From Rickettsiales bacterium (GTDB lineage: Bacteria > Pseudomonadota > Alphaproteobacteria > Rickettsiales > UBA8987): a stretch of 64,000 nucleotides of DNA. The notes beneath the pieces are model-generated. The model did not search any database. It had not been told where the DNA came from and was given only the letters and a program-made list of their open reading frames with translations. The translations under genes were made by a program, and so were the position numbers. The stretch spans positions 13,580-77,579 of the forward strand of contig JAHDCD010000004.1 of assembly GCA_020630095.1 (NCBI GenBank), written 5' to 3'. This document shows positions 36,498 to 60,874 of the stretch, piece after piece; the stretch's first letter is position 1, and every line of letters begins with the position of its first letter.

Positions 36498-36573
36498 GAT
36501 CTCGTAGCTCAGTCGGTAGAGCAACTGACTTTTAATCAGTGGGTCGGGAGTTCGAGCCTCCCCGAGATCACCA
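36498..36573 (+). tRNA. tRNA-Lys (anticodon UUU)
   Basis: Cloverleaf read by hand. The acceptor GATCTCG pairs with CGAGATC. The D arm is GCTCAGTCGGTAGAGC, the anticodon loop is CTTTTAA, and the T arm is GGGAG-TTCGAGC-CTCCC. The discriminator is A and CCA is encoded. Confidence 0.93.
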
Positions 36574-37224: not shown

Positions 37225-39885
37225 ATGAATCAAGCGCAAGTTGAAAAGAAGCTAAGTGAGTTAGTTAGGAATATAAATAAAGAAGATTTTATATATGATT
37301 TTCTTATGTGCTACGGCATACCCAAAGCTACCATTACCTTAATGAAGAAAGGTAGTAGAGATTTATCAAAGGTTGAGCATCAAAAAATACTAAAGAAGAA
37401 AATATTCTTTCATGAAGAACTTAATGGCGGCAGTTTATACGAGGCTATTGATAAGTTAAAAAATGATAGTTCAACATTCAAGCATGACCCTAATTTTATA
37501 ATAGTAACCGATTATAAAAACATTGTCGCAATTGATGTTAAAGCAAATGATACTTTAGACTCCGAAATAGAAAATCTTCATAAGAAGTATGATTTCTTTT
37601 TACCTTTAGCAGGTATGAAGAAATATAATGTTGCTGATGAAAATGAAGCTGATGTTAAAGCTGCAGAAAGAATGGCAAAGCTTTACGATCAGTTGCAGAG
37701 CGATAATGAGTTTGAAACAGAACAAGAAATTCATCACTTAAACATCTTCTTATCTCGCCTATTATTCTGCTTTTTCGCTGAAGATACTGATATGTTTGAA
37801 GGTGGAGATAACATCTTCACAAATTCAATTAAAAGCCATACCCAAGAAGATGGCTCAGATTTAAATGTATATTTAGATAGGTTATTTGAAGCACTTAACA
37901 CTACATCAAGAGATGATTACCCAGACCATTTTTCTAATTTTGATTATGTAAATGGTGGCTTATTTGCTGAAAATATTAAAGCCCCTCAATTCACAAGAAA
38001 ATCAAAAAGATTAATTGAAGATTTAGGCGAGCTTGATTGGTCTGAAATTAATCCTGATATTTTCGGTTCAATGATTCAGGCCGTTATCACCCCTGAACAT
38101 AGGGGTGGTTTGGGCATGCACTACACATCTGTGCCTAATATCATGAAGGTTATTGAGCCTTTATTCCTTGATGAGCTAAAGGAAGAATTTAAAAAGAATC
38201 ATAACAATGAAAAGAAACTAAATAAGCTACTTTTACGGTTAGAGAAAATTAAAATTTTCGACCCTGCCTGTGGTTCAGGTAATTTCTTAATTATTGCCTA
38301 TAAAGAACTTAGAGAGCTTGAGATTAATATATTCGTTAGAATTAACGAGCTTTCGCAATCAAGGCAGCTTCCGCTATCTCGAATTAAATTATCTCAATTT
38401 TACGGTATAGAGCTTGATGATTTTGCCCATGAAATAGCCATTTTATCACTATGGCTTTCTGAGCATCAGATGAATAAATTATTTAAAGAAAAGTTTGGCG
38501 ATGCTCCAAACCTTCTGCCTTTAAAGCCAAGCGGCAATATTGTTCATGGCAATGCAACCAGAATTGATTGGGAAGAAGTTTGCCCTAAAGAAAAAGATGA
38601 TGAAATCTATATTTTGGGCAACCCTCCTTATTTAGGCTCAAGTATGCAAGACGCTACCCAAAAAGAGGATATGGCAATTGTTTTTGATGGGTTTAAAAAT
38701 TATAAAAACTTAGATTACATAGCCTGCTGGTTTTATAAAGGTGCTGAATACATATCGGGCATCAATTCAAAATATGCTTTTGTATCAACTAATTCCATAT
38801 GTCAGGGGGAGCAAGTTGGACTCTTATGGCCTACAATTTTTGATAAAAATATTGAAATTAACTTTGCTTATACTTCATTTAAGTGGAGTAATAGTGCTAA
38901 AAGTAAGGCTAAAGTTATCTGCGTTATAGTTGGTCTAGCCAATAAGCAAGAGTTAAGTAAAAAAATATTTAATGAGATATCTATCTCTGAAGTTAAATCA
39001 ATAACTCCATACTTAACTTCAGGTAGATATGTTAAGCTAGAGAGAAGGTCAAAGAATATAAGCCCTTCATTACAGTCAATGGTTTGGGGGAATAAGGCTA
39101 CAGATGGAGGGAACTTTATATTAACCATTGATGAGGTTAATTCTTTAAAAAATGATTTTCCTGATAGTGTAAAATTTATAAAAAAATATATAGGTTCTGT
39201 AGAGTTTATAAGGGGAGTTGCGAGATGGTGCTTGTGGATAAGGGATAAAGATTTAGATAAAGCAAAAGAGATTCCTTTTATATTTGATAGAATTGAACGG
39301 GTCAAAAATGAAAGACTTTTGAGCAAAGCTGCGTCTACTAGGGCGTCAGCTAATAAGGCTCATAAGTTTATTCAAATACAGGGGGAACCTGATAAAGCCT
39401 TAATTATACCTAGCGTTTCTTCAATCAATAGAGATTACATTCCGATAGGTTTCGTTGAATCTGATACTGTTGTTAATGCTCAATGTTATGTTGTTTATAG
39501 ACCAGAATTTTATCTTTTTGGAGTTCTATCTTCTAAAATGCATATTACTTGGGTTAGAGCCGTAGCAGGTAAGTTGAAAAATGATTTTCGCTATTCTTCG
39601 GCTCTTTGTTACTCATCATTCCCAGTTCCCGAACTAACTGATGCTCAAAAGAAGATAATAGAAGACTGTGCGTTAAATGTTTTAGATGAGCGAGATAGGC
39701 ACCCAACAAAAACAATGGCAGAGCTTTACGACCCTGATAAAATGCCTGATGGCCTCCGCCAAGCCCACAAAATGTTAGATGAAGCGGTTGAAAAATGCTA
39801 TCGCAAAAAACCATTTGAATCAGACGAAGAACGCCTTGAACACCTGTTTAACCTATACGAAAAAATGACATCGGAGGAAGTGTAA
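37225..39885 (+). CDS. MmeI/PglX-family N6-adenine DNA methyltransferase (886 aa), no recognisable N-terminal PD-ExK nuclease motif
   Basis: Motif I is FDPACGSGNFLI and motif IV is GNPPYLGS. The family-typical segments LDWSEINPDIFGSMIQAV...GLGMHYTSVPNIMKVIEPLFLDEL and the C-terminal AELYDPDKMPDGLRQAHKMLDEAV are collinear with MmeI as I remember it. Confidence 0.85.
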   Translation: MNQAQVEKKLSELVRNINKEDFIYDFLMCYGIPKATITLMKKGSRDLSKVEHQKILKKKIFFHEELNGGSLYEAIDKLKNDSSTFKHDPNFIIVTDYKNIVAIDVKANDTLDSEIENLHKKYDFFLPLAGMKKYNVADENEADVKAAERMAKLYDQLQSDNEFETEQEIHHLNIFLSRLLFCFFAEDTDMFEGGDNIFTNSIKSHTQEDGSDLNVYLDRLFEALNTTSRDDYPDHFSNFDYVNGGLFAENIKAPQFTRKSKRLIEDLGELDWSEINPDIFGSMIQAVITPEHRGGLGMHYTSVPNIMKVIEPLFLDELKEEFKKNHNNEKKLNKLLLRLEKIKIFDPACGSGNFLIIAYKELRELEINIFVRINELSQSRQLPLSRIKLSQFYGIELDDFAHEIAILSLWLSEHQMNKLFKEKFGDAPNLLPLKPSGNIVHGNATRIDWEEVCPKEKDDEIYILGNPPYLGSSMQDATQKEDMAIVFDGFKNYKNLDYIACWFYKGAEYISGINSKYAFVSTNSICQGEQVGLLWPTIFDKNIEINFAYTSFKWSNSAKSKAKVICVIVGLANKQELSKKIFNEISISEVKSITPYLTSGRYVKLERRSKNISPSLQSMVWGNKATDGGNFILTIDEVNSLKNDFPDSVKFIKKYIGSVEFIRGVARWCLWIRDKDLDKAKEIPFIFDRIERVKNERLLSKAASTRASANKAHKFIQIQGEPDKALIIPSVSSINRDYIPIGFVESDTVVNAQCYVVYRPEFYLFGVLSSKMHITWVRAVAGKLKNDFRYSSALCYSSFPVPELTDAQKKIIEDCALNVLDERDRHPTKTMAELYDPDKMPDGLRQAHKMLDEAVEKCYRKKPFESDEERLEHLFNLYEKMTSEEV

Positions 39886-40419
39886 ATGAAGTGGAAGGAC
39901 TTACATACCTTAGGTTATGATCAATCAGGAAATATTAATATACCAGCCTTGCAGGATTCTTTACCTGATACGCCACTAGAAGTTCATGAAGATTTACTTT
40001 CTGGCTTTGGTAAAAACGATGATTTCCTTGAGTTATACGGTGATATTGACTTATCAAAAATTAAGTGGGAGAAGCATAAATTGAGAGCAAAAGAGCTTGT
40101 TGAATGTAGCTACTATAATAAATACTCCGACTGGCTTGAAGGTATGTCAGAGAGAATGGATAATTATAGCACTTTAGGATGGGATTGTTTACATCACACC
40201 GAAAAAGTTATGAATTATTGGAAAAACAATTCAACTTGGTATAGAAGACCCATCTTCTTTGATTTTGATCCTAGCAGTATATCTCAAGAAAAATGCCTTA
40301 GACTTTTAGAGGGGCATACTCGAATAGGTATTTTAAAGGGTGCATTAAAAAACAATATCTTAGACAAAAATAGTGAGCATGAAATATGGCTAGGTAAACT
40401 ACTGGGAGGACATAATTAA
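39886..40419 (+). CDS. small protein of unknown function (177 aa), possible ParB/Srx-like LLEGHTR motif
   Basis: The start abuts the methyltransferase stop (TAAATG). LRLLEGHTRIGIL faintly resembles the DGHHR motif of ParB-like domains. Confidence 0.45.
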   Translation: MKWKDLHTLGYDQSGNINIPALQDSLPDTPLEVHEDLLSGFGKNDDFLELYGDIDLSKIKWEKHKLRAKELVECSYYNKYSDWLEGMSERMDNYSTLGWDCLHHTEKVMNYWKNNSTWYRRPIFFDFDPSSISQEKCLRLLEGHTRIGILKGALKNNILDKNSEHEIWLGKLLGGHN

Positions 40420-44970: not shown

Positions 44971-45321
44971 ATGAATAATGTGGTATTAGTTAAAGATTAC
45001 TATCAGGATCATAGGTTTGATAATGAAGTGGTCATAAATCTTATAAATTCTCTAAAAAATCAATTGGAGAAATATATATTAACAGCAAACAAGGAGCTGA
45101 GGTCTAACAAGGATAAGGATTTGATAAATTCTTACTCAATATTTAGATTAGTAGCCAAAAAGGCAGTCTTTAACTGTAATAAGATAGCTCAAGCACCTAA
45201 TAGTTTTACAGCATGGCAGATAGTAAACGAAATTGAGATAATTTTGTCTGCAATGCCAGATTACTTTAAAGAGGAATTTGAAGATAAATATTATGAAGAG
45301 CTTTCAGCTTTAAGATACTAG
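44971..45321 (+). CDS. hypothetical protein (116 aa) with a strong Shine-Dalgarno sequence (AAGGAGGTGAcgtATG)
   Basis: ORF with a canonical RBS. No motif recognised. Confidence 0.5.
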   Translation: MNNVVLVKDYYQDHRFDNEVVINLINSLKNQLEKYILTANKELRSNKDKDLINSYSIFRLVAKKAVFNCNKIAQAPNSFTAWQIVNEIEIILSAMPDYFKEEFEDKYYEELSALRY

Positions 45322-45322
45322 A

Positions 45323-45610
45323 TTACATATCAAAGAAATAATTGGCATCTTTGTTAAAGATTTTACATAAGGCTCTTATCTCGACATCTCTGACAGCCCT
45401 TATACCGTTCTCTATTTTTGAGATACCTTTTTGATTGATGATAATATTAAAATCAATTTCTAAGGCTGCTGATAAATCTACTTGCATCATGCCTTTTTCT
45501 TTTCTGGCCTCGGCAACCTTTTTACCTATTGTATTTTCTTTGATTTTTGAAGCTGTCATGAAACGCAACTTATTGTTTAATTTCATATTATGCCTGATAA
45601 ATACTTGCAT
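45323..45610 (-). CDS. XRE-family HTH repressor (phage cI/Cro-like)
   Basis: IGKKVAEARKEKGMMQVDLSAAL...ISKIENG is an HTH_XRE pattern. Confidence 0.75.
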   Translation of the reverse strand: MQVFIRHNMKLNNKLRFMTASKIKENTIGKKVAEARKEKGMMQVDLSAALEIDFNIIINQKGISKIENGIRAVRDVEIRALCKIFNKDANYFFDM

Positions 45611-46734: not shown

Positions 46735-47163
46735 CTATGATAAAAACATATTGGCTTCAGCGGCTCTACGCCTGATTAAGCCTCTATTTGGCTTGCCTTG
46801 AACTTTGTGCCAACGAAGCATCTCGGCAGGCACTTTATCTTTCTTATTTTCGTTCAGCCTTTTAAGTAAGGTGCTACGCCTAAACGCACCGCTTCCTATG
46901 TTATAAACTAGTGAAACTAGGCTTGAATATTCAGCATCTGAAAGCTCAATTTTGACATTCTTCTTAACTGCATCTTCAGCTTTTTGAATATCTTGGCGCA
47001 AAAGTTCTTCAGCTTTATCACGGCCAATAACTTCGTAACCTTCGCCCTTCTTAATAAGGTGGCCATATCCAATAGTAGGCTTACCACCTACATCTAAATA
47101 TTTGTGACTTCGGAAACCTTCAAACTTTTTAATAAGCTCTATGCCATTATTAGTTATTTGCAT
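46735..47163 (-). CDS. endolysin, GH24 (T4-type) lysozyme
   Basis: IELIKKFEGFRSHKYLDVGGKPTIGYGH matches the E...D...T catalytic pattern. Confidence 0.88.
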   Translation of the reverse strand: MQITNNGIELIKKFEGFRSHKYLDVGGKPTIGYGHLIKKGEGYEVIGRDKAEELLRQDIQKAEDAVKKNVKIELSDAEYSSLVSLVYNIGSGAFRRSTLLKRLNENKKDKVPAEMLRWHKVQGKPNRGLIRRRAAEANMFLS

Positions 47164-52427: not shown

Positions 52428-53214
52428 CTCTAAAATTTATTATATTAGAAAACTTGTTTTTGCATGAATCTAAGCTTTTATCGCAACCCGCTATTGCTTT
52501 GATGTTATCGCCAACTTGAATTTCATAAGGCATAGGCAAGGCTAAGATTATAAAGTTTTCGGTAAATTCTTTAACTTCCATTCTAAGCCCTTGATTAGAG
52601 CCTGAGGTAAATTCAACTTCGCCGCCAGTAAAATAACCTGCATTTTGAGTAAGGTTATTAGTTCTAAAAGTAATATTATTAACAACTTCAGCTACATTAT
52701 CAGCGAATGTAAATGCAGATAAATTAGCCTTGCATCTGCTGTCGCCTAAATCTGCCCTGCAAGATTTGCTATATAATTGACCGATATTCTTTTGGATATT
52801 CTCTGATAACCCACGAAGTTCAGCGGTAAAACTATCTTTCTGTAATGACACTTCGCCAATACGACCACGCTTTAATATCATTTTACCTTGCGATAAATCA
52901 GCATAATTAAGCGAAAATATTAGAACTTCTGCATAGTCATATTTACCCGCAAGCAAATCTGGTGCTGTAATATGGTTAGAATGAAGCCCTGCTTGTATAT
53001 CAAGATTATCAACCGCCAGATTACCCTTTGCTTCAACTGAAGTTGGCGTAAATCCTGCTATTGAGATGTAATTAAAGCCCTCAAATTCAATATCCTTATC
53101 AGCATCAGTAAAGGCTTTTATATCGCCATTGGTAAGCTGAATTAGCCAACAAGTGGCAAGAGTAGTTAAATCTTGCTCAAGATGGCTTTTAAGCTCATTA
53201 GATATAGTTTTCAT
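52390..53214 (-). CDS. DUF2163 / BR0599-family phage protein (RcGTA g13-like)
   Basis: Contains the N-terminal LATCWLIQLTNGDIKAFTDADKDIEF pattern and the C-terminal CDKSLDSCKNKFSNIINFRGEPHIP. Confidence 0.7.
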   Translation of the reverse strand: MKTISNELKSHLEQDLTTLATCWLIQLTNGDIKAFTDADKDIEFEGFNYISIAGFTPTSVEAKGNLAVDNLDIQAGLHSNHITAPDLLAGKYDYAEVLIFSLNYADLSQGKMILKRGRIGEVSLQKDSFTAELRGLSENIQKNIGQLYSKSCRADLGDSRCKANLSAFTFADNVAEVVNNITFRTNNLTQNAGYFTGGEVEFTSGSNQGLRMEVKEFTENFIILALPMPYEIQVGDNIKAIAGCDKSLDSCKNKFSNIINFRGEPHIPTTDAII

Positions 53215-53819
53215 AAGCGTAATTCAATTAGCGGAATATCAGACCATGAACGAGTACCGAAATCATCTATGGAAGCATCTAAGCTGTCCGTGTCGAATCT
53301 TACAGGGACATCAAATTCAAAATTAGCCGTAATTATTGCACCATTATTAGGCGGAGTATCAAAATTAACTATGCCGGTTACGTAATCTACGCTGTAGCCA
53401 TTTGTTTGCTCAATAGAGTCTAAGAATATCTTAAACTCATCATTATCAACAGGCTTTGAAATATTGCGGATAATTTCTTGCCCTGCATTGGAGTAAGTTT
53501 TAACAAGCTGAAATTCAGTTGTAGCATCATCGCCAGTACCGATTTGCTGATTATTAGCTTTATAATCTAGCCAGTCTTTAAACCTAAAGCCAATTGCTCT
53601 GCCACGCCTTGCATGGAAGAACTCAATAAGAGCTTCCATTTGAGCCTGCTTCTTTACACCATGAGCTACATTATATTTTGCTCTTGGCAGTTGCCAGTTG
53701 ATATTTCTTTGCTCATGACCGTTAAATGTTTCTACAATATCCGTTGAATATACAGGCCCACCAGATGAGCCGTATGATATATCAGGTGGGAACTGAATTT
53801 CTGCAAATGATGAAGTCAT
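53211..53819 (-). CDS. DUF2460 distal tail protein (RcGTA g12-like)
   Basis: Contains FPPDISYGSSGGPVYSTDIVETFNGHEQRNINW and KYNVAHGVK. Confidence 0.75.
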   Translation of the reverse strand: MTSSFAEIQFPPDISYGSSGGPVYSTDIVETFNGHEQRNINWQLPRAKYNVAHGVKKQAQMEALIEFFHARRGRAIGFRFKDWLDYKANNQQIGTGDDATTEFQLVKTYSNAGQEIIRNISKPVDNDEFKIFLDSIEQTNGYSVDYVTGIVNFDTPPNNGAIITANFEFDVPVRFDTDSLDASIDDFGTRSWSDIPLIELRL

Positions 53820-53967
53820 TATGGTAGTTTTATGATGTTTTAAGCCTTGGTGTACATTAAATGTGGTAAATATTATACATATATAACAACACCTTAATTG
53901 GCGTTATGCAGTTTAGCTATTTTTATTTACTTAACTGCGATTAAATATGCCTAATCTAATCGTAATT

Positions 53968-54005
53968 AACGCTAAAACTAACACAAAACTGTTAGTTTTA
54001 GCGTT
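53968..54005. promoter_or_regulatory. perfect 15 bp inverted repeat with an 8 nt spacer at the edge of the inserted HTH/Fic module
   Basis: Reads AACGCTAAAACTAACacaaaactGTTAGTTTTAGCGTT. Confidence 0.6.
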
Positions 54006-54052
54006 AGTATAGTTGGTAAACTTTTGTAATTCATTTACTGGAATCATTTTTA

Positions 54053-54133
54053 AATGTATATATTGATAAATTACCTTGCTTTTCAATGTATATATTGATA
54101 TAGTAAGTCATAAACTCAATTTATATATTGATT
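54053..54133 (+). promoter_or_regulatory. three direct copies of a 16 bp motif (AATGTATATATTGATA) spaced 32-33 bp apart; the last abuts the ATG at 54134
   Basis: The copies lie at 54053-54068, 54085-54100 and 54118-54133. The third reads AATTTATATATTGATT. Confidence 0.65.
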
Positions 54134-54589
54134 ATGGGTAAGTTTAATAAATTACAATTAGAGTCTTTAGATAAGCAAATTAAGCAAGCTAATTGCCCTA
54201 GAACACCTAATGGCGGTTGGTTAAAGGCAATTCGTACAGCTCTTAAAATGCCATTATCTGCGGTAGCTTCAAGAATAGGAGTTAGCTCGCAGGCTGTATC
54301 TCAAGCAGAAAAACTTGAAGATCAAGGCTCAATATCTATTTCTCAACTAAATAAGATAGCTAACGCTATGGGCTTTGAACTACATTATGCTCTAAAGCCT
54401 ATAGATAATAAATCTATAAATGATGTTATTAAGGCTCAAGCTATGGTTAAAGCAAAGCAGATTGTCGATAAGGTTGATATTACCATGACTATTGAAGATC
54501 AAAAAGTAACATCTTCAAAGCAATCTATTGAGCAGTTAGCTAACGAATTAGCAGATAATCTTAACAGCAAATTATGGCAAGATGATTAA
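54134..54589 (+). CDS. HTH XRE-type protein ('mobile mystery protein A'-like)
   Basis: LKAIRTALKMPLSAVASRIGVSSQAVSQAEK is an HTH. The gene is paired with a Fic gene and overlaps it by 8 nt. The start was set at the ATG (54134) rather than the track TTG at 54128. Confidence 0.7.
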   Translation: MGKFNKLQLESLDKQIKQANCPRTPNGGWLKAIRTALKMPLSAVASRIGVSSQAVSQAEKLEDQGSISISQLNKIANAMGFELHYALKPIDNKSINDVIKAQAMVKAKQIVDKVDITMTIEDQKVTSSKQSIEQLANELADNLNSKLWQDD

Positions 54590-55166
54590 GTATTTCTACC
54601 CTGAAGGAGCAACTCCGATTGATGAACAAGAGAAGCTAGCTCTAATACCTATTCTTTCAAATATGGAAGAGCTTAACCTTTGGGAGCAAGAAAACATTAT
54701 CGAAGCTTATACATGGCTTAGCCGAGCTAGACTTCAGAACACCGATATCTTTACTGAAAAGTTCATTTGCAATCTACATAAACGAATGTTTAGCCGCACT
54801 TGGAAATGGGCTGGCGAATATCGTAAAACAAACAAGAATATTGGTTGTGAGTTTCATTTAGTACCTATTGAACTTAATTATCTATTAGAAGATGCTAAGT
54901 TTTGGCTTGATAATTCAACTTATACTATTCATCAACTTGCTTTGGCTTTCCACCATAGGCTTGTTAAAATCCATCTATTCCCCAATGGCAATGGAAGGCA
55001 TGCAAGGCTTATGGCAGATTGTATAGCTAAAAAATTAGGGGCAGAATATCTTAATTGGGGTTGGGATATGCAAGCAGATAATGACTATCGTAAATTATAC
55101 ATATCAGCATTGAAAGAAGCTGATTATGGTGATTACACGTCTTTATTTAAAATATTCAAAGTTTAA
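54582..55166 (+). CDS. Fic-domain protein ('mobile mystery protein B'-like)
   Basis: Carries the Fic motif HLFPNGNGRHARL. Confidence 0.85.
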   Translation: MIKYFYPEGATPIDEQEKLALIPILSNMEELNLWEQENIIEAYTWLSRARLQNTDIFTEKFICNLHKRMFSRTWKWAGEYRKTNKNIGCEFHLVPIELNYLLEDAKFWLDNSTYTIHQLALAFHHRLVKIHLFPNGNGRHARLMADCIAKKLGAEYLNWGWDMQADNDYRKLYISALKEADYGDYTSLFKIFKV

Positions 55167-58066
55167 AGATTACGCCTTGCCCGTTTAATTGCTAGTGCCA
55201 TGTCTGCAGTTATTTGCTTTTCAGAACGCCTAAATGAGCTAGCATCTTGAGCAGATATATTCATATTTATTGTAATGTTATCGCCTTTAGAAGAGCTGTT
55301 ATTATTGGTATTATTTACCGTTTGGTAGTTATCTGGAATAAATAACTCTGCACCTTTTTCGCCTACAACATGAAGGTTGTTAGCCATAACAGAGCCGCCA
55401 TTAGCATAATAACCTGCAAAATTACCCATCTTATGATTAGGTATAATTTCACCGTTGGCTGAAGGCACAAATAGTTCAGGTCCTCGCTCTCCTACTACAA
55501 TTGGAACAGATGATTTAACCATTCCACCGTTAGCAAAGAATCCGCCGAATATTGAGCTAAAGTCACCACCGAAAAAGGAGTCTCCGCCAGTTGAACCGCC
55601 ACCGAATAAAAAATCTCCAACAAATTGCGTGGTAAAGTTGAGAGCGATATCCTCAAAGCTGGTCATCATGTCTTTCCAGCCATCTTTACCTTTTGTGAAA
55701 ACGGATTTTAAGCCGTCAGTAAACGCACTTTTAAAATCTTCTGTGAATTGGTCTGTATGCTCTAATGATTGGTCTAATTCTTGCTTAACATTGTCAGAAA
55801 AGTCTAATTCAGGTAAGCTAAAGTTACCTGCTAAATCAAGTTCAGGCCTTGAATAGCTAAATTCGGGAGTGTCAAAACTAGGTGTATCAAATGAAGGCGT
55901 TGAAATCTCAGGCTTGGAGAAATCAATCTTTTGTGAAGAAGATGCTAGTTTAGATATTTTATCATCTGTATTTTCAGCAGCATTAGCTACAGAATTTAAA
56001 CTTTCTTCGGCTTCTTCTAAGCGATTAGATTCTCCGATTATGTCATCTACGAAATCAGAAAAGAAGCCACCTATTCCATCAAACAAGTCTGAGAATGTAC
56101 TAGATACGCTCTCGCCAATATCAATAAATACGGAACTAACCGTGTCATACATACTTGTAAAGAAACCGCCTATTTCTGGCATTGTTTCTGCTACATAGTT
56201 ATAGATTCCACTAAATGTATCTTCAGCAAAGCTATATATACCGCTAAATACTTGGCCAACAGGCTCAAGAAACTCACCGAAAAATCCAACTATAGAAGAC
56301 AGTGTATTAGCTGTAGTTTTTGCAAGGTAATTAAATCCTTCACTAATATTGCTAGTTATACCGACAAAAATGTCGCTAACAAATTCGTAAACCCCAGTTA
56401 AAGCGGAACTAACAACATTATAAATCTGCTCGAAGCCTTGAATATGCCAATCAACAATGGTTTGAATGAAGTTGCCAACTCGCTCTGATATTACATTCCA
56501 TGTACCGAAAATAATATTGCCAACAGATGCGTTTAATTCACCTACAGATACAATTTTATCTTTGAAGAATTGAAAAGCTCCAATAACAGCAGTAACCGCT
56601 CCTATGGCTAAACCAATAGGACCTGTAAGAAACGCAAAGGCAGCTCCTAAAATTCTAAGCCCTCCAGAAAGTAAGGTGCTAGCACTTCCCATTAAAGAAA
56701 AGCTGGTGGTTACATTTGCTGCTGCGAAACTAAACTTTAAGCCTAATGTCGATGCAAGGCTGATAAGCCTTAAAAACATCGGGGCAAGCTTTAGAAGTGT
56801 TAGCCCAGTTAAAGCTATACCTAAAATTTCAGCATTTTCTGCTAAAAACATAAAGGCAGAGCCAAGCGATTTGGCAAATACTTCAACAGCACCGCTATTT
56901 AGGAAAGTAATTAACTTATCAGATAGCAGAATTATTGCCGGTGCTAATTCTTTACCAATAGTCTTAGCTGCATCTTTGAAGTTATTGCCAAGTAAGGTAA
57001 GCTTTGAACGAAGTGTAGAAAATGCAACGGCAACTTCTTCATTTAATGCCTTGTTTTGTTGATAAGCTCTATTTGAATCTTCAACTTTTGATTTTAGAAC
57101 ATCAAAGTTTTTAGCCAATAATGGCATAATAGCGTTAATTTCTGTGCCATTAAGCCCTAAAGATTTTAGCGTTTTAGCAGCACTTCCGCCTTGGTCAATT
57201 ATACCTTTTAATCCTTTGGTAAACGATAAGAAAGCTCCGAATGCATCTTCTTCAAATGCTTGCTTAAACTGGTCGCCAGTTTGACCAGTCAAAATGGATA
57301 GAGTCTTTAAGTCATCTCCTCCTTCTTGGCTGACCTTTTGCATGGTAAGGAATAACCTTAACATTGAAGAACGAGCAAGTTCAGGTTGTTGCCCGAATGA
57401 CGATAAGGTTGCACCTAAGCCTGCTATATCGGCACTCGCAACATCAAATTGAGCCAAGCCTTTAGAGATTTCAATTACCATCTTGGCAATTTCTCGTTCG
57501 GTGGTAGCTGAAGTGTTACCTAGATAAACTAAGGCTGAAGCTAGTTTATCAACAGATTCTATAGGCTCTCTAGTATTATTTAAAATACGAGCAAGAGTAG
57601 TCGCAGCAGCATCACCAGATAAATTACTGGCAGCTCCTAGTTTTGATATAGTTTCTGTAAATTTCTCAATATCCTTAGGTGCTGAAATACCTAGCTGTCC
57701 TGCCGCTTGTGCGATAGATAAAAGCTCATCTCTAGCGATAGGAATACGCTTAGACATATTGACGATATTGTCGCCTAAGCTTTCTAACGCTTCGCCTGCA
57801 AGTCCTGTAGTTTTACCTACACCAACTAAGCCAGTTTCATAATCAGCAAATGAGTTTACAGAAGCCCTTATAAACTGCCCGATACCAAGAGTAGCTATTG
57901 CACCTCTAACAGAAAATAGATTTTTCTTCAGTCTATCAAAGCTAGAATCAATCTCGCCCGCCATAGCACGAGAGTTTTTTCTAACTGAATTGATGGCGCT
58001 AATAAGCTTCTTACTACCTTGAAGTGCTCTTCGAGCATCAATGGTTACGAGTAATTTGCTTTCCAC
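55163..58066 (-). CDS. tail tape measure protein (967 aa, GTG start)
   Basis: Size, position after the chaperone frameshift, helical/Gly-rich hydrophobic central region, and short internal repeats (TPSFDTPSFDTPEF). Confidence 0.85.
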   Translation of the reverse strand: MESKLLVTIDARRALQGSKKLISAINSVRKNSRAMAGEIDSSFDRLKKNLFSVRGAIATLGIGQFIRASVNSFADYETGLVGVGKTTGLAGEALESLGDNIVNMSKRIPIARDELLSIAQAAGQLGISAPKDIEKFTETISKLGAASNLSGDAAATTLARILNNTREPIESVDKLASALVYLGNTSATTEREIAKMVIEISKGLAQFDVASADIAGLGATLSSFGQQPELARSSMLRLFLTMQKVSQEGGDDLKTLSILTGQTGDQFKQAFEEDAFGAFLSFTKGLKGIIDQGGSAAKTLKSLGLNGTEINAIMPLLAKNFDVLKSKVEDSNRAYQQNKALNEEVAVAFSTLRSKLTLLGNNFKDAAKTIGKELAPAIILLSDKLITFLNSGAVEVFAKSLGSAFMFLAENAEILGIALTGLTLLKLAPMFLRLISLASTLGLKFSFAAANVTTSFSLMGSASTLLSGGLRILGAAFAFLTGPIGLAIGAVTAVIGAFQFFKDKIVSVGELNASVGNIIFGTWNVISERVGNFIQTIVDWHIQGFEQIYNVVSSALTGVYEFVSDIFVGITSNISEGFNYLAKTTANTLSSIVGFFGEFLEPVGQVFSGIYSFAEDTFSGIYNYVAETMPEIGGFFTSMYDTVSSVFIDIGESVSSTFSDLFDGIGGFFSDFVDDIIGESNRLEEAEESLNSVANAAENTDDKISKLASSSQKIDFSKPEISTPSFDTPSFDTPEFSYSRPELDLAGNFSLPELDFSDNVKQELDQSLEHTDQFTEDFKSAFTDGLKSVFTKGKDGWKDMMTSFEDIALNFTTQFVGDFLFGGGSTGGDSFFGGDFSSIFGGFFANGGMVKSSVPIVVGERGPELFVPSANGEIIPNHKMGNFAGYYANGGSVMANNLHVVGEKGAELFIPDNYQTVNNTNNNSSSKGDNITINMNISAQDASSFRRSEKQITADMALAIKRARRNL

Positions 58067-58813
58067 GACTTCTATTCTTTGTTATGGCATTTTGCTTGTT
58101 CTTTTTATTGAGAAGTTTTACGGTTAACTTATCCATTGATTGAACTAGATGGACAAAGCCTTCAACATCTGGAGGATCAAAAACATCTATATATGCTTTG
58201 ATTTCTGAAAATGGTATTAAGGATATTCCAAAACCTACATTTCTGCTTGAAGAAAGAGTTGTAAACCCTTGTTTTACATATTCTAAATGTGGGTATATTA
58301 TGGGTGTATTTTGTAGGGCATCAGGGATAGTGCCTGTTTTTTCTTTTATGCTATTTAGAAAGTCTAAATGCTTGCCCCACTCAACTTGCCATTCAACCCA
58401 CGAAGCTAGTTTTTTTCCGCTTCTTCTAACTCCTCTTCACGGAATAGCTCAAAGTTTGTTGCCAGCTCAACTATAAAATCTCTAAAGTCTGATAATGTAG
58501 GGTCAGAAAGAACCTTAAGAGCATTTTCTTTTGAGTAAGGTAATTTCTTATTATCTAATTCAAGATTTTCCCAGTCTAGTAAAACCGCTTCAGCTAGACA
58601 TTCGGTTGCTATCTTTTCTTCAATTTTAGGGTCTAGTTTGCCAGTTCTAATTTGCCTTTGGTAAGGTTGCGTAAGACGGTTATATTCCCTTTGGAAATTA
58701 GGGTTCTTAAGCCTAGCAATTTTAAGCTTTAAGCCATCGCCTAAATCTTCTGTCCAAGTTCCATCAGTAGCTTTGCTTATGTTAATTCCGTATTGTTTTC
58801 TTAAATCTGCCAT
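58038..58813 (-). CDS. tail assembly chaperone GT-like fusion made by a -1 programmed frameshift at A-AAA-AAC (58415-58409)
   Basis: After the heptamer, the -1 frame is open for 123 codons (LASWVEWQVEWGKHLDF...GKQITRNH*) with no start codon of its own. It ends at 58038, overlapping the tape-measure start. Confidence 0.7.
58406..58813 (-). CDS. tail assembly chaperone (G-like, 135 aa)
   Basis: It lies between the tail tube and tape measure genes. It ends ...GAA AAA AAC TAG, with the slippery heptamer in frame. Confidence 0.8.
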   Translation of the reverse strand: MADLRKQYGINISKATDGTWTEDLGDGLKLKIARLKNPNFQREYNRLTQPYQRQIRTGKLDPKIEEKIATECLAEAVLLDWENLELDNKKLPYSKENALKVLSDPTLSDFRDFIVELATNFELFREEELEEAEKN

Positions 58814-58857: not shown

Positions 58858-59646
58858 TTATTTTTTAGGTTCTTCAATGGACTTGAGAACTTTAATACCT
58901 AAGTTTGTAATCTTAAAACTATCGTCTTTGTTTAACTCATTTACGAGAGGTTCTAACCTTGTATCCACTCCATAGGCATGAGTACCACTAGAACCATTAT
59001 TAACATTTAGAGAAGATGTATTAATTTTATTCTTTACAACTTCAATTAATCCTTGTGATAGAAGTTGGTAACTTATTGATTTCCTTTTATTTTCTAAATC
59101 GAACCTTTCATTTAAAGAGATATCTCTTTGATCAACTTCGCTACCAATCCAAAGTTGAGGAAACTTTCGTTTATATTTATTTAAATGAGGTAAATTATTG
59201 CTTATCTTTTTTTCTTTATAAAAGCCCAGCATTACAAGTTCAGTGTTACTTAGCTTTTGAATTATTTTAAATATAATATCTTGCTCTTCATAATTAAAAA
59301 CTTCATAAGATAAGCCATTTATTAAGGTGTTTACTAACCTTTCTCTCTTCATATCATTTGGAGTTTTAGGAATTATATATAGACTTTCTTCAAATAAGTT
59401 TTGGCGGTCTATATCATCTGAAAAATAACACTTTAACTTTTCAGGAGGTAAATATTCAAACAAAGTGTTTAAATATTCTATTGCCCTATCATTTTGTAAT
59501 GAAATAAGGCTACCTACAACAGTCTCAATAACGGTTCCAACAAGAGGTATGCAGAACAACTCAGATAGACTCTTTATTCCCTCGATACTCTTATCTGCTA
59601 TGTTTTTATCAAATTCTCCTTTTTTATTATCCAGTTTGGTCATCAC
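58858..59646 (-). CDS. hypothetical protein (262 aa) inserted between the tail tube and chaperone genes (moron-like)
   Basis: The ORF is very AT/Lys/Asn-rich compared with its neighbours. It is separated by intergenic gaps on both sides, whereas flanking structural genes are tightly packed. Confidence 0.55.
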   Translation of the reverse strand: MMTKLDNKKGEFDKNIADKSIEGIKSLSELFCIPLVGTVIETVVGSLISLQNDRAIEYLNTLFEYLPPEKLKCYFSDDIDRQNLFEESLYIIPKTPNDMKRERLVNTLINGLSYEVFNYEEQDIIFKIIQKLSNTELVMLGFYKEKKISNNLPHLNKYKRKFPQLWIGSEVDQRDISLNERFDLENKRKSISYQLLSQGLIEVVKNKINTSSLNVNNGSSGTHAYGVDTRLEPLVNELNKDDSFKITNLGIKVLKSIEEPKK

Positions 59647-59692: not shown

Positions 59693-60874
59693 CTAAGCAT
59701 CGAATTTGTCAATTTGAATAGTGAAGTCATAGTCTGGGTGGCGAATTGCTTGATATTCTGATTCCATGATAATATCGCTATCTGCCGAACCTGCCGCTAA
59801 GTTTGAGCTTACAAACTTAATTCTAGGGAGTGTGAAGATATAGTTATTTCCTGCTATATCCTTTACTCGAAGTGAGATAGAGGATTCCGTGCCTTCAACA
59901 TATTTCTTATATATTGAGCCATCTTTAAAGTAGGCATTGAGCGTACCAGTAACACCAACTCGGCCAACACCAATACAAACATTACCTAATGTGCCTACGG
60001 CTTTTTGTCCTCTTAGGTTATTAGCTAAGGCAATTGAGAACTCTTGAATCTCTCCGGGAAACTTAGCCCCACCTTCACCAATGTAGGCAACATTATTTAC
60101 GGCATTCATTACATCATTTGCGGGAGCATCAATAGGCGCTCCTGTGCCAACTGTAGCGGTATTTATATTAGCTTCCTTACCTAAGAAACCGAATGAGCCA
60201 CTTAGAATCTCGCCAACAGAAAGACTTAAATTAAAGCTGTTAATCAGCATTCCAGTAAATACCTTAAACTCATTAACATCAGTAAATGCAGTTTCTAGCG
60301 TGTAGCTTTTAGCTTCTGTGCCATTACGAATATTTTTACCTACTGCATCAACTGAAGCTCCTGCGGCTTCATCGACTAAAAGGGTTTCACCCGATACTTG
60401 AAGCGTATTAGACGTAATATCAAGAACTAGAAAATAGCCGTTATTATCTGCGTTACTGAAACCGTCAATTTTTATCCATTGCCCTTTTCTGATGCCTTCG
60501 GCAACAAAATCAGTTGAAGTAGATGAAAATGTATCAGGGTTAACAGAATCCGTTGCTATGGCTTCAATGTCAGTTGCACCCGCTATTGCTACATCTGAAC
60601 CCCAGTTATCGAATAATGCGCCCTCAAATAAATCGTCATAAGCAAGATACGATAATTCAAAATTTACATCGCCTGAAGGCTCTGCATCTGTTTGAATAAG
60701 ATCGGTAATTTGCCTATCTGAACGGATTTCTTGGGATTGAGTATTTTCAATAGAGAAATTAAGCGATTCACCAGTAAAGCGTAAGCCTTTAAGCGGTAAC
60801 GCAGGTGTTTCACCTATATTAGTTTCTTCTACATAAAATAGTTGGGTTCTTGAGGTATCTGCAAAACAAGTCAT
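59693..60874 (-). CDS. major tail (tube) protein (393 aa)
   Basis: Called from its position between the tail-terminator-like gene and the chaperone. The N-terminal FYVEETNIGETP...LRFTGESLNF...SQEIRSDRQ resembles siphovirus tail tube proteins from memory. Confidence 0.55.
   Translation of the reverse strand: MTCFADTSRTQLFYVEETNIGETPALPLKGLRFTGESLNFSIENTQSQEIRSDRQITDLIQTDAEPSGDVNFELSYLAYDDLFEGALFDNWGSDVAIAGATDIEAIATDSVNPDTFSSTSTDFVAEGIRKGQWIKIDGFSNADNNGYFLVLDITSNTLQVSGETLLVDEAAGASVDAVGKNIRNGTEAKSYTLETAFTDVNEFKVFTGMLINSFNLSLSVGEILSGSFGFLGKEANINTATVGTGAPIDAPANDVMNAVNNVAYIGEGGAKFPGEIQEFSIALANNLRGQKAVGTLGNVCIGVGRVGVTGTLNAYFKDGSIYKKYVEGTESSISLRVKDIAGNNYIFTLPRIKFVSSNLAAGSADSDIIMESEYQAIRHPDYDFTIQIDKFDA

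Follow-up and report, generated by a model that had tools for sequence, protein, structure and literature searches.

A divergent mobile mystery protein A/B pair, antisense in a prophage tail operon, as a probable Fic toxin-antitoxin module with a three-dyad operator array

We analyzed a 64 kb stretch of Rickettsiales DNA (contig JAHDCD010000004.1), hereafter called the window, to which all coordinates refer unless a locus of the comparison set (prefix L) is named. Within it, two plus-strand genes run against the minus-strand structural genes of a prophage. One encodes a helix-turn-helix (HTH) protein of the XRE type, which we call A, and the other a Fic protein, which we call B. Our analysis indicates that the two genes probably constitute a toxin-antitoxin (TA) operon akin to the class I Fic systems, in which the antitoxin binds DNA and represses its own synthesis, and that the prophage carries this operon as an antisense moron. 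The open reading frame of A (54134-54589, plus strand) starts with ATG and encodes 151 residues, that of B (54582-55166, plus strand) encodes 194 residues, and the two overlap by 8 nt. The NCBI products P0121 (A) and P0001 (B) are identical to our translations. The pair is located between the minus-strand genes for the tail tape measure and for a DUF2460 protein, and its layout is that of a type II TA system: bicistronic, with overlapping genes and the antitoxin gene first. The initial annotation of this DNA had already described two plus-strand genes with an 8-nt overlap that interrupt a minus-strand operon, and all of its elements were found at, or within 1-2 nt of, the positions it gave.

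Protein B matches the NCBIfam profile TIGR02613, 'mobile mystery protein B', with 207.9 bits (cutoff 124.4, E = 1.2e-61) over profile positions 1-183 of 186, and the Pfam Fic family with an E-value of 1e-12. Its active-site motif, as read from the sequence, is H131-L-F-P-N-G-N-G-R-H-A-R142 (54972-55007, plus strand; residues 131-143 are HLFPNGNGRHARL). In the alignment H, F, N135, G, N, G, R139 and R142 of this motif are invariant, and the form HxF[PAS]NGNGRHxR is present in essentially all of the 65 family members. The motif of B (HLFPNGNGRHAR) fits the canonical HxFx(D/E)GNGRxxR except for Asn135 at the Asp/Glu position, where Asn is found family-wide. The same HxFxNGNGR variant is present in CccR of Yersinia pseudotuberculosis (PDB 7XUX), which AMPylates FtsZ (PMC9755527). 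As CccR with this variant is an active AMPylator, Asn135 need not mean that B is inactive.

The AlphaFold2 (AF2) model of B has a pLDDT of 86.4. A Foldseek search with this model gave matches of probability 1.00 to FICD, VbhT, EcFicT, BepA and EfFic with TMq values of 0.6-0.72. The lowest E-values belong to FICD (E = 7e-6), and mutual coverage was best for two class I toxins, VbhT (TMt 0.75) and EcFicT (TMt 0.68-0.71). Judging by this model, B is predicted to have a Fic fold. A search for the inhibitory motif (S/T)xxxE(G/N) in the 65 B proteins produced only five scattered strict matches, none of which is conserved in position, and B has no built-in inhibitory helix. The conserved N-terminal FEQEN of B was considered as an internal inhibitory helix of the class II/III kind and rejected: E37 varies across the wider family, while E35, N38 and I39, which are invariant, do not fit the motif. 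Most likely, B is a minimal single-domain enzyme of the Fic AMP-transferase type and a putative toxin.

Protein A contains a Pfam HTH_3 domain (7.5e-07) and aligns to the NCBIfam profile TIGR02612, 'mobile mystery protein A', with 104.5 bits and E = 4.4e-30 over profile positions 5-150 of 150. We treat it as a divergent relative of that family. The earlier assignment of the pair to the 'mobile mystery protein A/B' type is borne out by the score of B, which exceeds its cutoff, and by the alignment of A over 146 of the 150 profile positions, but the score of A itself is below its cutoff and is taken up again below. NCBIfam also reports a weak match of A to the HipB-like Y4mF antitoxin family (0.0016). 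A search of the A profile against the PDB returned generic HTH matches only (434 Cro, SinR and P22 C2) and none for the C-terminal half.

In the AF2 model of A, residues 29-78 form an HTH of high confidence, and they are followed by a C-terminal helical region of low confidence. The latter contains the sequence T-M-T-I-E-D-Q (residues 117-123; 54482-54502, plus strand), an instance of the family motif [ST]-M-x-L-E-x-Q. Among 64 non-redundant A proteins, the Met, Glu and Gln of this motif are conserved in all 64, the Leu in 62, and the Ser or Thr at position -4 relative to the Glu in 50. The motif resembles the Fic-inhibitory (S/T)xxxE(G/N). By analogy with VbhA and FicA, we infer that it is a candidate Fic-inhibitory helix whose Glu acts like the inhibitory Glu of these two antitoxins.

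In the AT-rich DNA upstream of A (24% GC), three similar repeats are found: O1 (TAAATGTATATATTGAT, 54051-54067), O2 (TCAATGTATATATTGAT, 54083-54099) and O3 (TCAATTTATATATTGAT, 54116-54132). Their start-to-start spacing is 32 and 33 nt, and both copy 1 and copy 3 have a single mismatch to copy 2 over 17 nt. A 17-mer search of the entire 64 kb that allowed up to three mismatches gave seven matches, where 0.85 were expected and none of 100 shuffled sequences reached seven; with zero or one mismatch, the search gave the three copies only. Since copies 2 and 3 were hit on the minus strand as well, the individual repeats are near-palindromes. The repeat unit is a 16-17 bp dyad, TCAAT-N6-ATTGA, centered on TATA; O2 has this dyad and O1 is a near-dyad. 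The triple repeat reported in the initial annotation is thus real and spaced as claimed, but its copies start at 54051, 54083 and 54116 and not at 54053, 54085 and 54118. The third copy, said to reach the start codon, ends 1 nt before the ATG of A and has two mismatches in the 16-mer frame used there.

The position of the repeats relative to a promoter-like site is suggestive of repression. On the plus strand, a -35 element TTGCTT (54076-54081) is followed by a 17-nt spacer and a -10 element TATAGT (54099-54104), and the spacer of this match is filled by O2. Found in a relaxed scan, it fits 8 of 12 consensus positions and is tied for the best match in the region. We provisionally accepted so modest a match, given that relatives have a site of this geometry too. 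Loci L039, L042, L043 and L045 all contain TTTAC(A/T), 17 nt centered on O2, and TATATT or CATAAT. In a wider comparison, the best promoter match was centered within 4 nt of the O2 center in ~13 of 30 loci, compared to ~3 expected. If the promoter is placed by consensus, O1 would lie upstream of it, O2 within it, and O3 over a predicted short 5' leader of ~22 nt, with transcription predicted to begin near 54110.

The three-dyad arrangement extends well beyond the window. We collected 103 loci, 23 viral and 80 metagenomic, that contain relatives of B at 37-59% identity. In nearly all of these loci with room for it, a homologue of A is found directly upstream of B and co-oriented with it. In the 70 full-length pairs, the two genes mostly overlap or abut, with overlaps of 10, 4, 7 or 8 nt. 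For 61 of the 72 upstream regions that remained after removal of redundancy, self-similarity was strongest at a lag of 31-34 or 64-67 bp, compared to 9.9% in shuffled sequences, and a register search located three dyads at a spacing of 32-33 bp in 50 of the 72 (for example, TCAGGTTATAACCTGA, ACAACATATATGTTGT and ATACCTATAGGTAT). The dyad arms vary from locus to locus, and most dyads retain the TATA at their center. In the Agrobacterium tumefaciens pTi (NZ_CP048526.1, with a homologue at 39069-40123), ATCA(T/G)-N8-CTGAT occurs three times (L142:912-995) with centers 33 and 33 bp apart, upstream of an annotated 'mobile mystery protein A', and in the Rickettsia asiatica plasmid pRA1 the repeats are spaced at 33-34 bp. 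The three-dyad operator design with a ~33 bp period is a trait of the family.

The sequence of the dyads also changes together with the part of A that would contact them. For 44 loci, the similarity of half-sites correlated with the identity of the HTH segment with a Spearman coefficient of 0.32, compared to 0.18 for the rest of A and 0.23 for B. With B controlled for, the partial correlation of half-site and HTH segment was 0.26 (label-permutation Mantel test, p ~5e-4), and the rest of A added almost nothing beyond the HTH segment (0.08). The comparison of L039 and L042 illustrates the trend: with 95% identity in B and 69% in A, the two loci have different operator arms. Divergence is faster in A than in B, and for the window proteins the best homologue identity is 60% for B and only 36-44% for A. 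The co-variation is supportive of the idea that A reads the dyads. The view of the repeats as an operator array, put forward in the initial annotation, has gained from the dyad symmetry, from the family-conserved number and 33-bp phasing, from the co-variation with the HTH and from the location of the middle copy in a promoter-like spacer.

These findings are in agreement with the following mechanism. Dimers of A would bind the three 16-bp dyads, phased at 32-33 bp, via the XRE HTH. With O2 in the promoter spacer, O1 upstream and O3 over the leader, binding of A, alone or in complex with B, would silence the promoter of the operon itself. The C-terminal motif of A would insert its Glu into the ATP site of the Fic protein, as the antitoxins VbhA and FicA do. 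The two genes are translationally coupled through the 8-nt overlap. We infer DNA binding by A, toxicity of B and its neutralization by the Glu, as well as a target and a biological role for the pair. The latter is likely prophage or plasmid addiction, abortive-infection defence, or both. Pairs of Xre and Fic/Doc genes were predicted to be TA systems by Makarova et al. 2009 (PMC2701414).

A number of observations weigh against this interpretation. The 104.5 bits of A are below the TIGR02612 cutoff of 122.6. The Fic motif of B has Asn where the canonical one has Asp or Glu. In the A motif, the canonical Gly or Asn follows the invariant Glu in only 7 of 64 proteins; the window and about half of the family have Asp at this position. 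When A is folded alone, the pLDDT of the motif region is below 50, although low model confidence is common for toxin-binding tails. The promoter match of 8 out of 12 is weak, the standard promoter scan listed nothing upstream of A, and no Shine-Dalgarno sequence precedes the start codon of A. The co-variation of operator and HTH is modest and not fully independent of shared ancestry. Finally, our search for experimental work on the mobile mystery protein family found none in the library covered, where four papers mention the name in passing only.

The same parts can be given a different biological role. In an anti-phage module for abortive infection or superinfection exclusion, selected for because it defends the lysogen, infection or the loss of A synthesis would free the Fic protein, which would then AMPylate a host or phage target and abort the infection. 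This explanation differs from the favored one in the biological role alone, and we consider it a tentative possibility. Fic-based defence does exist, as exemplified by SoFic (PMC12249575), B has a match at 1.4e-22 to PDC-S04, a PADLOC candidate family for defence, and antisense placement of cargo in prophage structural operons is seen in two unrelated phage types. However, PDC-S04 is itself a candidate family, and SoFic is a 361-residue class II protein that was matched at 3e-10. Moreover, the family is most abundant on plasmids (253 records) and was not found in any of the 50,697 cultured phage genomes searched, which fits addiction at least as well as defence. A non-toxic regulatory pair, in which A is a transcription factor and B modifies or de-modifies a host or phage protein and thereby tunes it in the manner of lysogenic conversion, appears unlikely to us. 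Some Fic proteins are indeed regulators: FICD is the best Foldseek match and, according to the entry titles, AMPylates BiP as well as de-AMPylating it, and the Asn in place of Asp or Glu in the motif of B could alter its chemistry. Such a pair is nevertheless difficult to reconcile with the strict linkage and translational coupling of the two genes, the faster evolution of A compared to B, the invariant Glu motif of A next to a Fic protein that has no inhibitory helix of its own, the spread on plasmids and phages, and the full-length structural similarity of B to the FicT and VbhT toxins.

It is even harder to maintain that the repeats are not operators of A and instead represent AT-rich promoter elements of the UP or -10-like kind, sites bound by a host factor, or an iteron-like array for replication or partition, and we regard this as very improbable. 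The central TATA of each dyad does resemble a -10 element, and the repeat stretch is AT-rich. However, GC-rich relatives retain the number of repeats, the dyad symmetry and the 33-bp phase without the central TATA (Agrobacterium, ATCAG-N8-CTGAT), the dyad arms change along with the HTH segment of A, and the array is always located directly upstream of A irrespective of whether the pair resides on a phage, a plasmid or a chromosome.

The genes that surround the pair identify the setting as the late operon of a siphovirus-type prophage with an RcGTA-like distal tail, in DNA of ~36% GC. Profile searches identified the gene that converges on B as the tail tape measure (55163-58066, minus strand, 967 residues). 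The gene on the other side, which is the first late-operon gene downstream of the insert, encodes a distal tail protein of the DUF2460/Rcc01695 family (53211-53819, minus strand, 202 residues). Further downstream on the minus strand are the genes for the baseplate hub, an NlpC/P60 peptidase and a 1245-residue host-specificity protein of the RcGTA type, and the endolysin gene is at 46735-47163. Upstream in the operon are the tail assembly chaperone (58406-58813), the tail terminator and the tail tube-like protein (59693-60874). The closest relatives of the DUF2460 protein, at identities of up to 63%, are from metagenome-assembled genomes of Rickettsiales and other alphaproteobacteria. The stop codon TAA of the Fic gene (55164-55166) and that of the tape-measure gene (complement of 55163-55165) overlap in the palindrome TTAA, so there is neither intergenic space nor a terminator between the two genes. 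A terminator scan found none downstream of Fic. The same overlap of convergent stops is present in L039, L042 and L043.

An insertion of the pair into this operon is confirmed by comparison with related tails, as the initial annotation had supposed. Neither A nor B is present in 38 related tail loci that were taken from genomes and resemble gene transfer agents (GTAs), and in two of them, L015 and L036, only 7-18 nt separate the tape-measure gene from the DUF2460 gene. At the same time, eight viral or metagenomic loci (L039-L045 and L062) carry the A/B cassette, antisense, at the same junction. Their identity to the window is 56-60% for DUF2460, ~54% for the hub and 53-59% for B. The insert is neither recent nor private to the window. 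Together with five loci of other context, the window and the eight syntenic loci fall inside one 11-member clade of the A and B trees. The shared junction and the shared clade mean that the cassette is either old in this phage lineage or a repeated user of the slot. Its absence from the 38 related tail loci, its opposite orientation and its own promoter-like site are the features of a phage moron, and we regard the cassette as one, with the caveats that eight loci share the insertion site and that no terminator follows Fic.

Other relatives have unrelated, mostly antisense cargo at the tape-measure/DUF2460 or the DUF2460/hub junction. It includes a ClpP-like SDH protease, a cation-efflux protein, DUF347 and DUF1622 proteins, ferritin, and several proteins without a Pfam match. 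The respective genes are located at L009:6972-7967, L010:1307-1897, L014:7187-7948, L013:7156-7911 and L008:3376-4314 on the minus strand and at L024:7096-7533 and L001:2062-3231 on the plus strand. These two junctions of RcGTA-like tail clusters act as cargo slots. A/B cassettes are not confined to tails. In an unrelated group of viral contigs (L053:5546-6588; also L051, L055 and L056), the cassette is inserted antisense into the head module, between a 427-residue portal-adjacent gene and the gene for the major head protein, with the large terminase further upstream. In total, ~3,900 homologues of B were found. The family is present on 253 plasmids, which include Agrobacterium Ti/Ri plasmids and those of Rhizobium, Coxiella and Rickettsia, and on 23 viral contigs, and no homologue of B was detected in the cultured phage genomes at E <= 1e-10.

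In the syntenic phages, the three operators fill the entire 82-90 nt between the start codons of DUF2460 and A (L039:5468-5559, L043:5467-5560 and L062:~375-455), and the first operator of these phages (GTCATAATAT...) contains a CAT that is the ATG of DUF2460 on the other strand. Because the array occupies all of this space and O1 overlaps the DUF2460 start codon, it could gate read-through of the late operon. The antisense placement would then be functional in itself: the operator nucleoprotein and the convergent promoter would gate late read-through into the distal tail genes and, conversely, late transcription would silence the antitoxin and release Fic upon induction. We consider this extension of the model a long shot. 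If true, a toxin triggered by colliding transcription would represent a timer for host shut-off or commitment to lysis, and the fixed 33-bp phasing would reflect a repressor filament bridged by the toxin. In the window, the minus strand has a perfect TATAAT at 53877 to 53872, without a recognizable -35 element and at a distance of 53 nt upstream from the ATG of DUF2460. It might serve as an internal promoter for the distal tail genes.

The distance between the two start codons is greater in the window since 230 nt of additional non-coding DNA (53820-54050), missing from the syntenic relatives, separate the DUF2460 start from O1. This segment includes a perfect inverted repeat of 17 nt (53967-53983 and 53990-54006) with a 6-nt loop, and the z-score of the corresponding RNA fold (53967-54006) is -5.3. 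There is no U-run on either strand, which is why the terminator scan did not list the hairpin. No other copy was found in the window or in 141 loci, and no match was found in Rfam. We considered whether the hairpin could be a module boundary, a repeat, a mobile element or an RNA of a known family, and rejected these ideas because it is present in a single copy, has no Rfam match and is absent from the syntenic relatives. The inverted repeat described initially is hence perfect, but it is 17 and not 15 nt long, and it does not mark the edge of the module; the hairpin is not part of the conserved module.

Three further features of the region are worth recording. Between the tail tube-like and chaperone genes, where the GC content of the tail region is lowest (0.31), there is a 262-residue open reading frame (58858-59646, minus strand) without a Pfam or PHROG match. 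This may be a further cargo gene, here on the strand of the operon. Just outside the endolysin end of the prophage, a gene for a 95-residue HTH_3 protein and an abutting convergent open reading frame of 116 residues without a Pfam match are found side by side; the two coding regions occupy 44971-45321 (plus strand) and 45323-45610 (minus strand) in the order of their coordinates. They may represent a regulator or another small two-gene module. A gene for tRNA-Lys(UUU) is located at 36498-36573, ~9-10 kb from the endolysin end.

In summary, the locus adds a member to a named, uncharacterized family, and what is new here is the family-wide operator design of three dyads at 33 bp, the candidate antitoxin motif and the conserved cargo slot. 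The widespread mobile mystery pair now has a concrete model of a Fic toxin and a DNA-binding antitoxin, with operator arms that would be re-specified together with the repressor. Confirmation of the model would extend the Fic antitoxins by a class that binds DNA and furnish a set of orthogonal repressor/operator pairs, and the pTi cassette offers a genetically tractable model for the family. For phage biology, the cargo slot at the junction of the tape-measure and distal tail genes of RcGTA-like tails is of interest, as is the persistence of the cassette in this slot across deep divergence (~59% protein identity).

Among described systems, the closest is the mobile mystery protein A/B family itself. 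B is a clear member, A aligns to its profile end to end and occupies the same place upstream of B, and the pair resides on mobile DNA. The A protein of the window is divergent, at no more than 44% identity to any other A, and neither the operator array nor the A motif described in this work belongs to the definition of the family. Next in similarity are the class I Fic systems VbhT/VbhA and FicT/FicA (E. coli Fic/YhfG). Like their toxins, B is a single-domain Fic protein of ~190 residues that has no internal inhibitory helix; its model superposes on VbhT and EcFicT over nearly the full length (TMt 0.68-0.75), and the upstream partner gene encodes a conserved Glu-containing motif in a candidate helix. 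However, the sequence identity of B to the class I toxins is only 16-17%, the motif of A is [ST]MxLE[D/A/E/N/G]Q and not a strict (S/T)xxxE(G/N), and B has Asn at the Asp/Glu position. Furthermore, VbhA and FicA are small proteins that are not known to have an XRE DNA-binding domain, which the 151-residue partner here does contain.

In its regulatory part, the locus is reminiscent of HipBA-type Xre TA systems, which are autoregulated through several operators, and of the triple operators of phages 434 and lambda: its XRE HTH gene comes first and the toxin gene second, and its dyads overlap a promoter-like site. The differences are the fixed ~33 bp spacing of the three dyads, which is conserved family-wide, and the toxin, which is a Fic enzyme and not a kinase or a nuclease. 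With SoFic and PDC-S04, B has the Fic catalytic domain in common. PDC-S04 matches B over ~170 residues, whereas the 361-position SoFic profile is matched by B only at positions 93-207 and not over its full length. The reported antidote of SoFic, AS1, is encoded by a small downstream gene (PMC12249575), and its place is taken here by the upstream HTH protein. Finally, CccR is a 380-residue polypeptide secreted by a type VI secretion system and is remotely similar to B (E = 8e-6). Besides the HxFxNGNGRxxR motif shared with B, it combines Fic activity and autorepressing DNA binding in one system (PMC9755527), a combination that the locus described here would distribute over two proteins.

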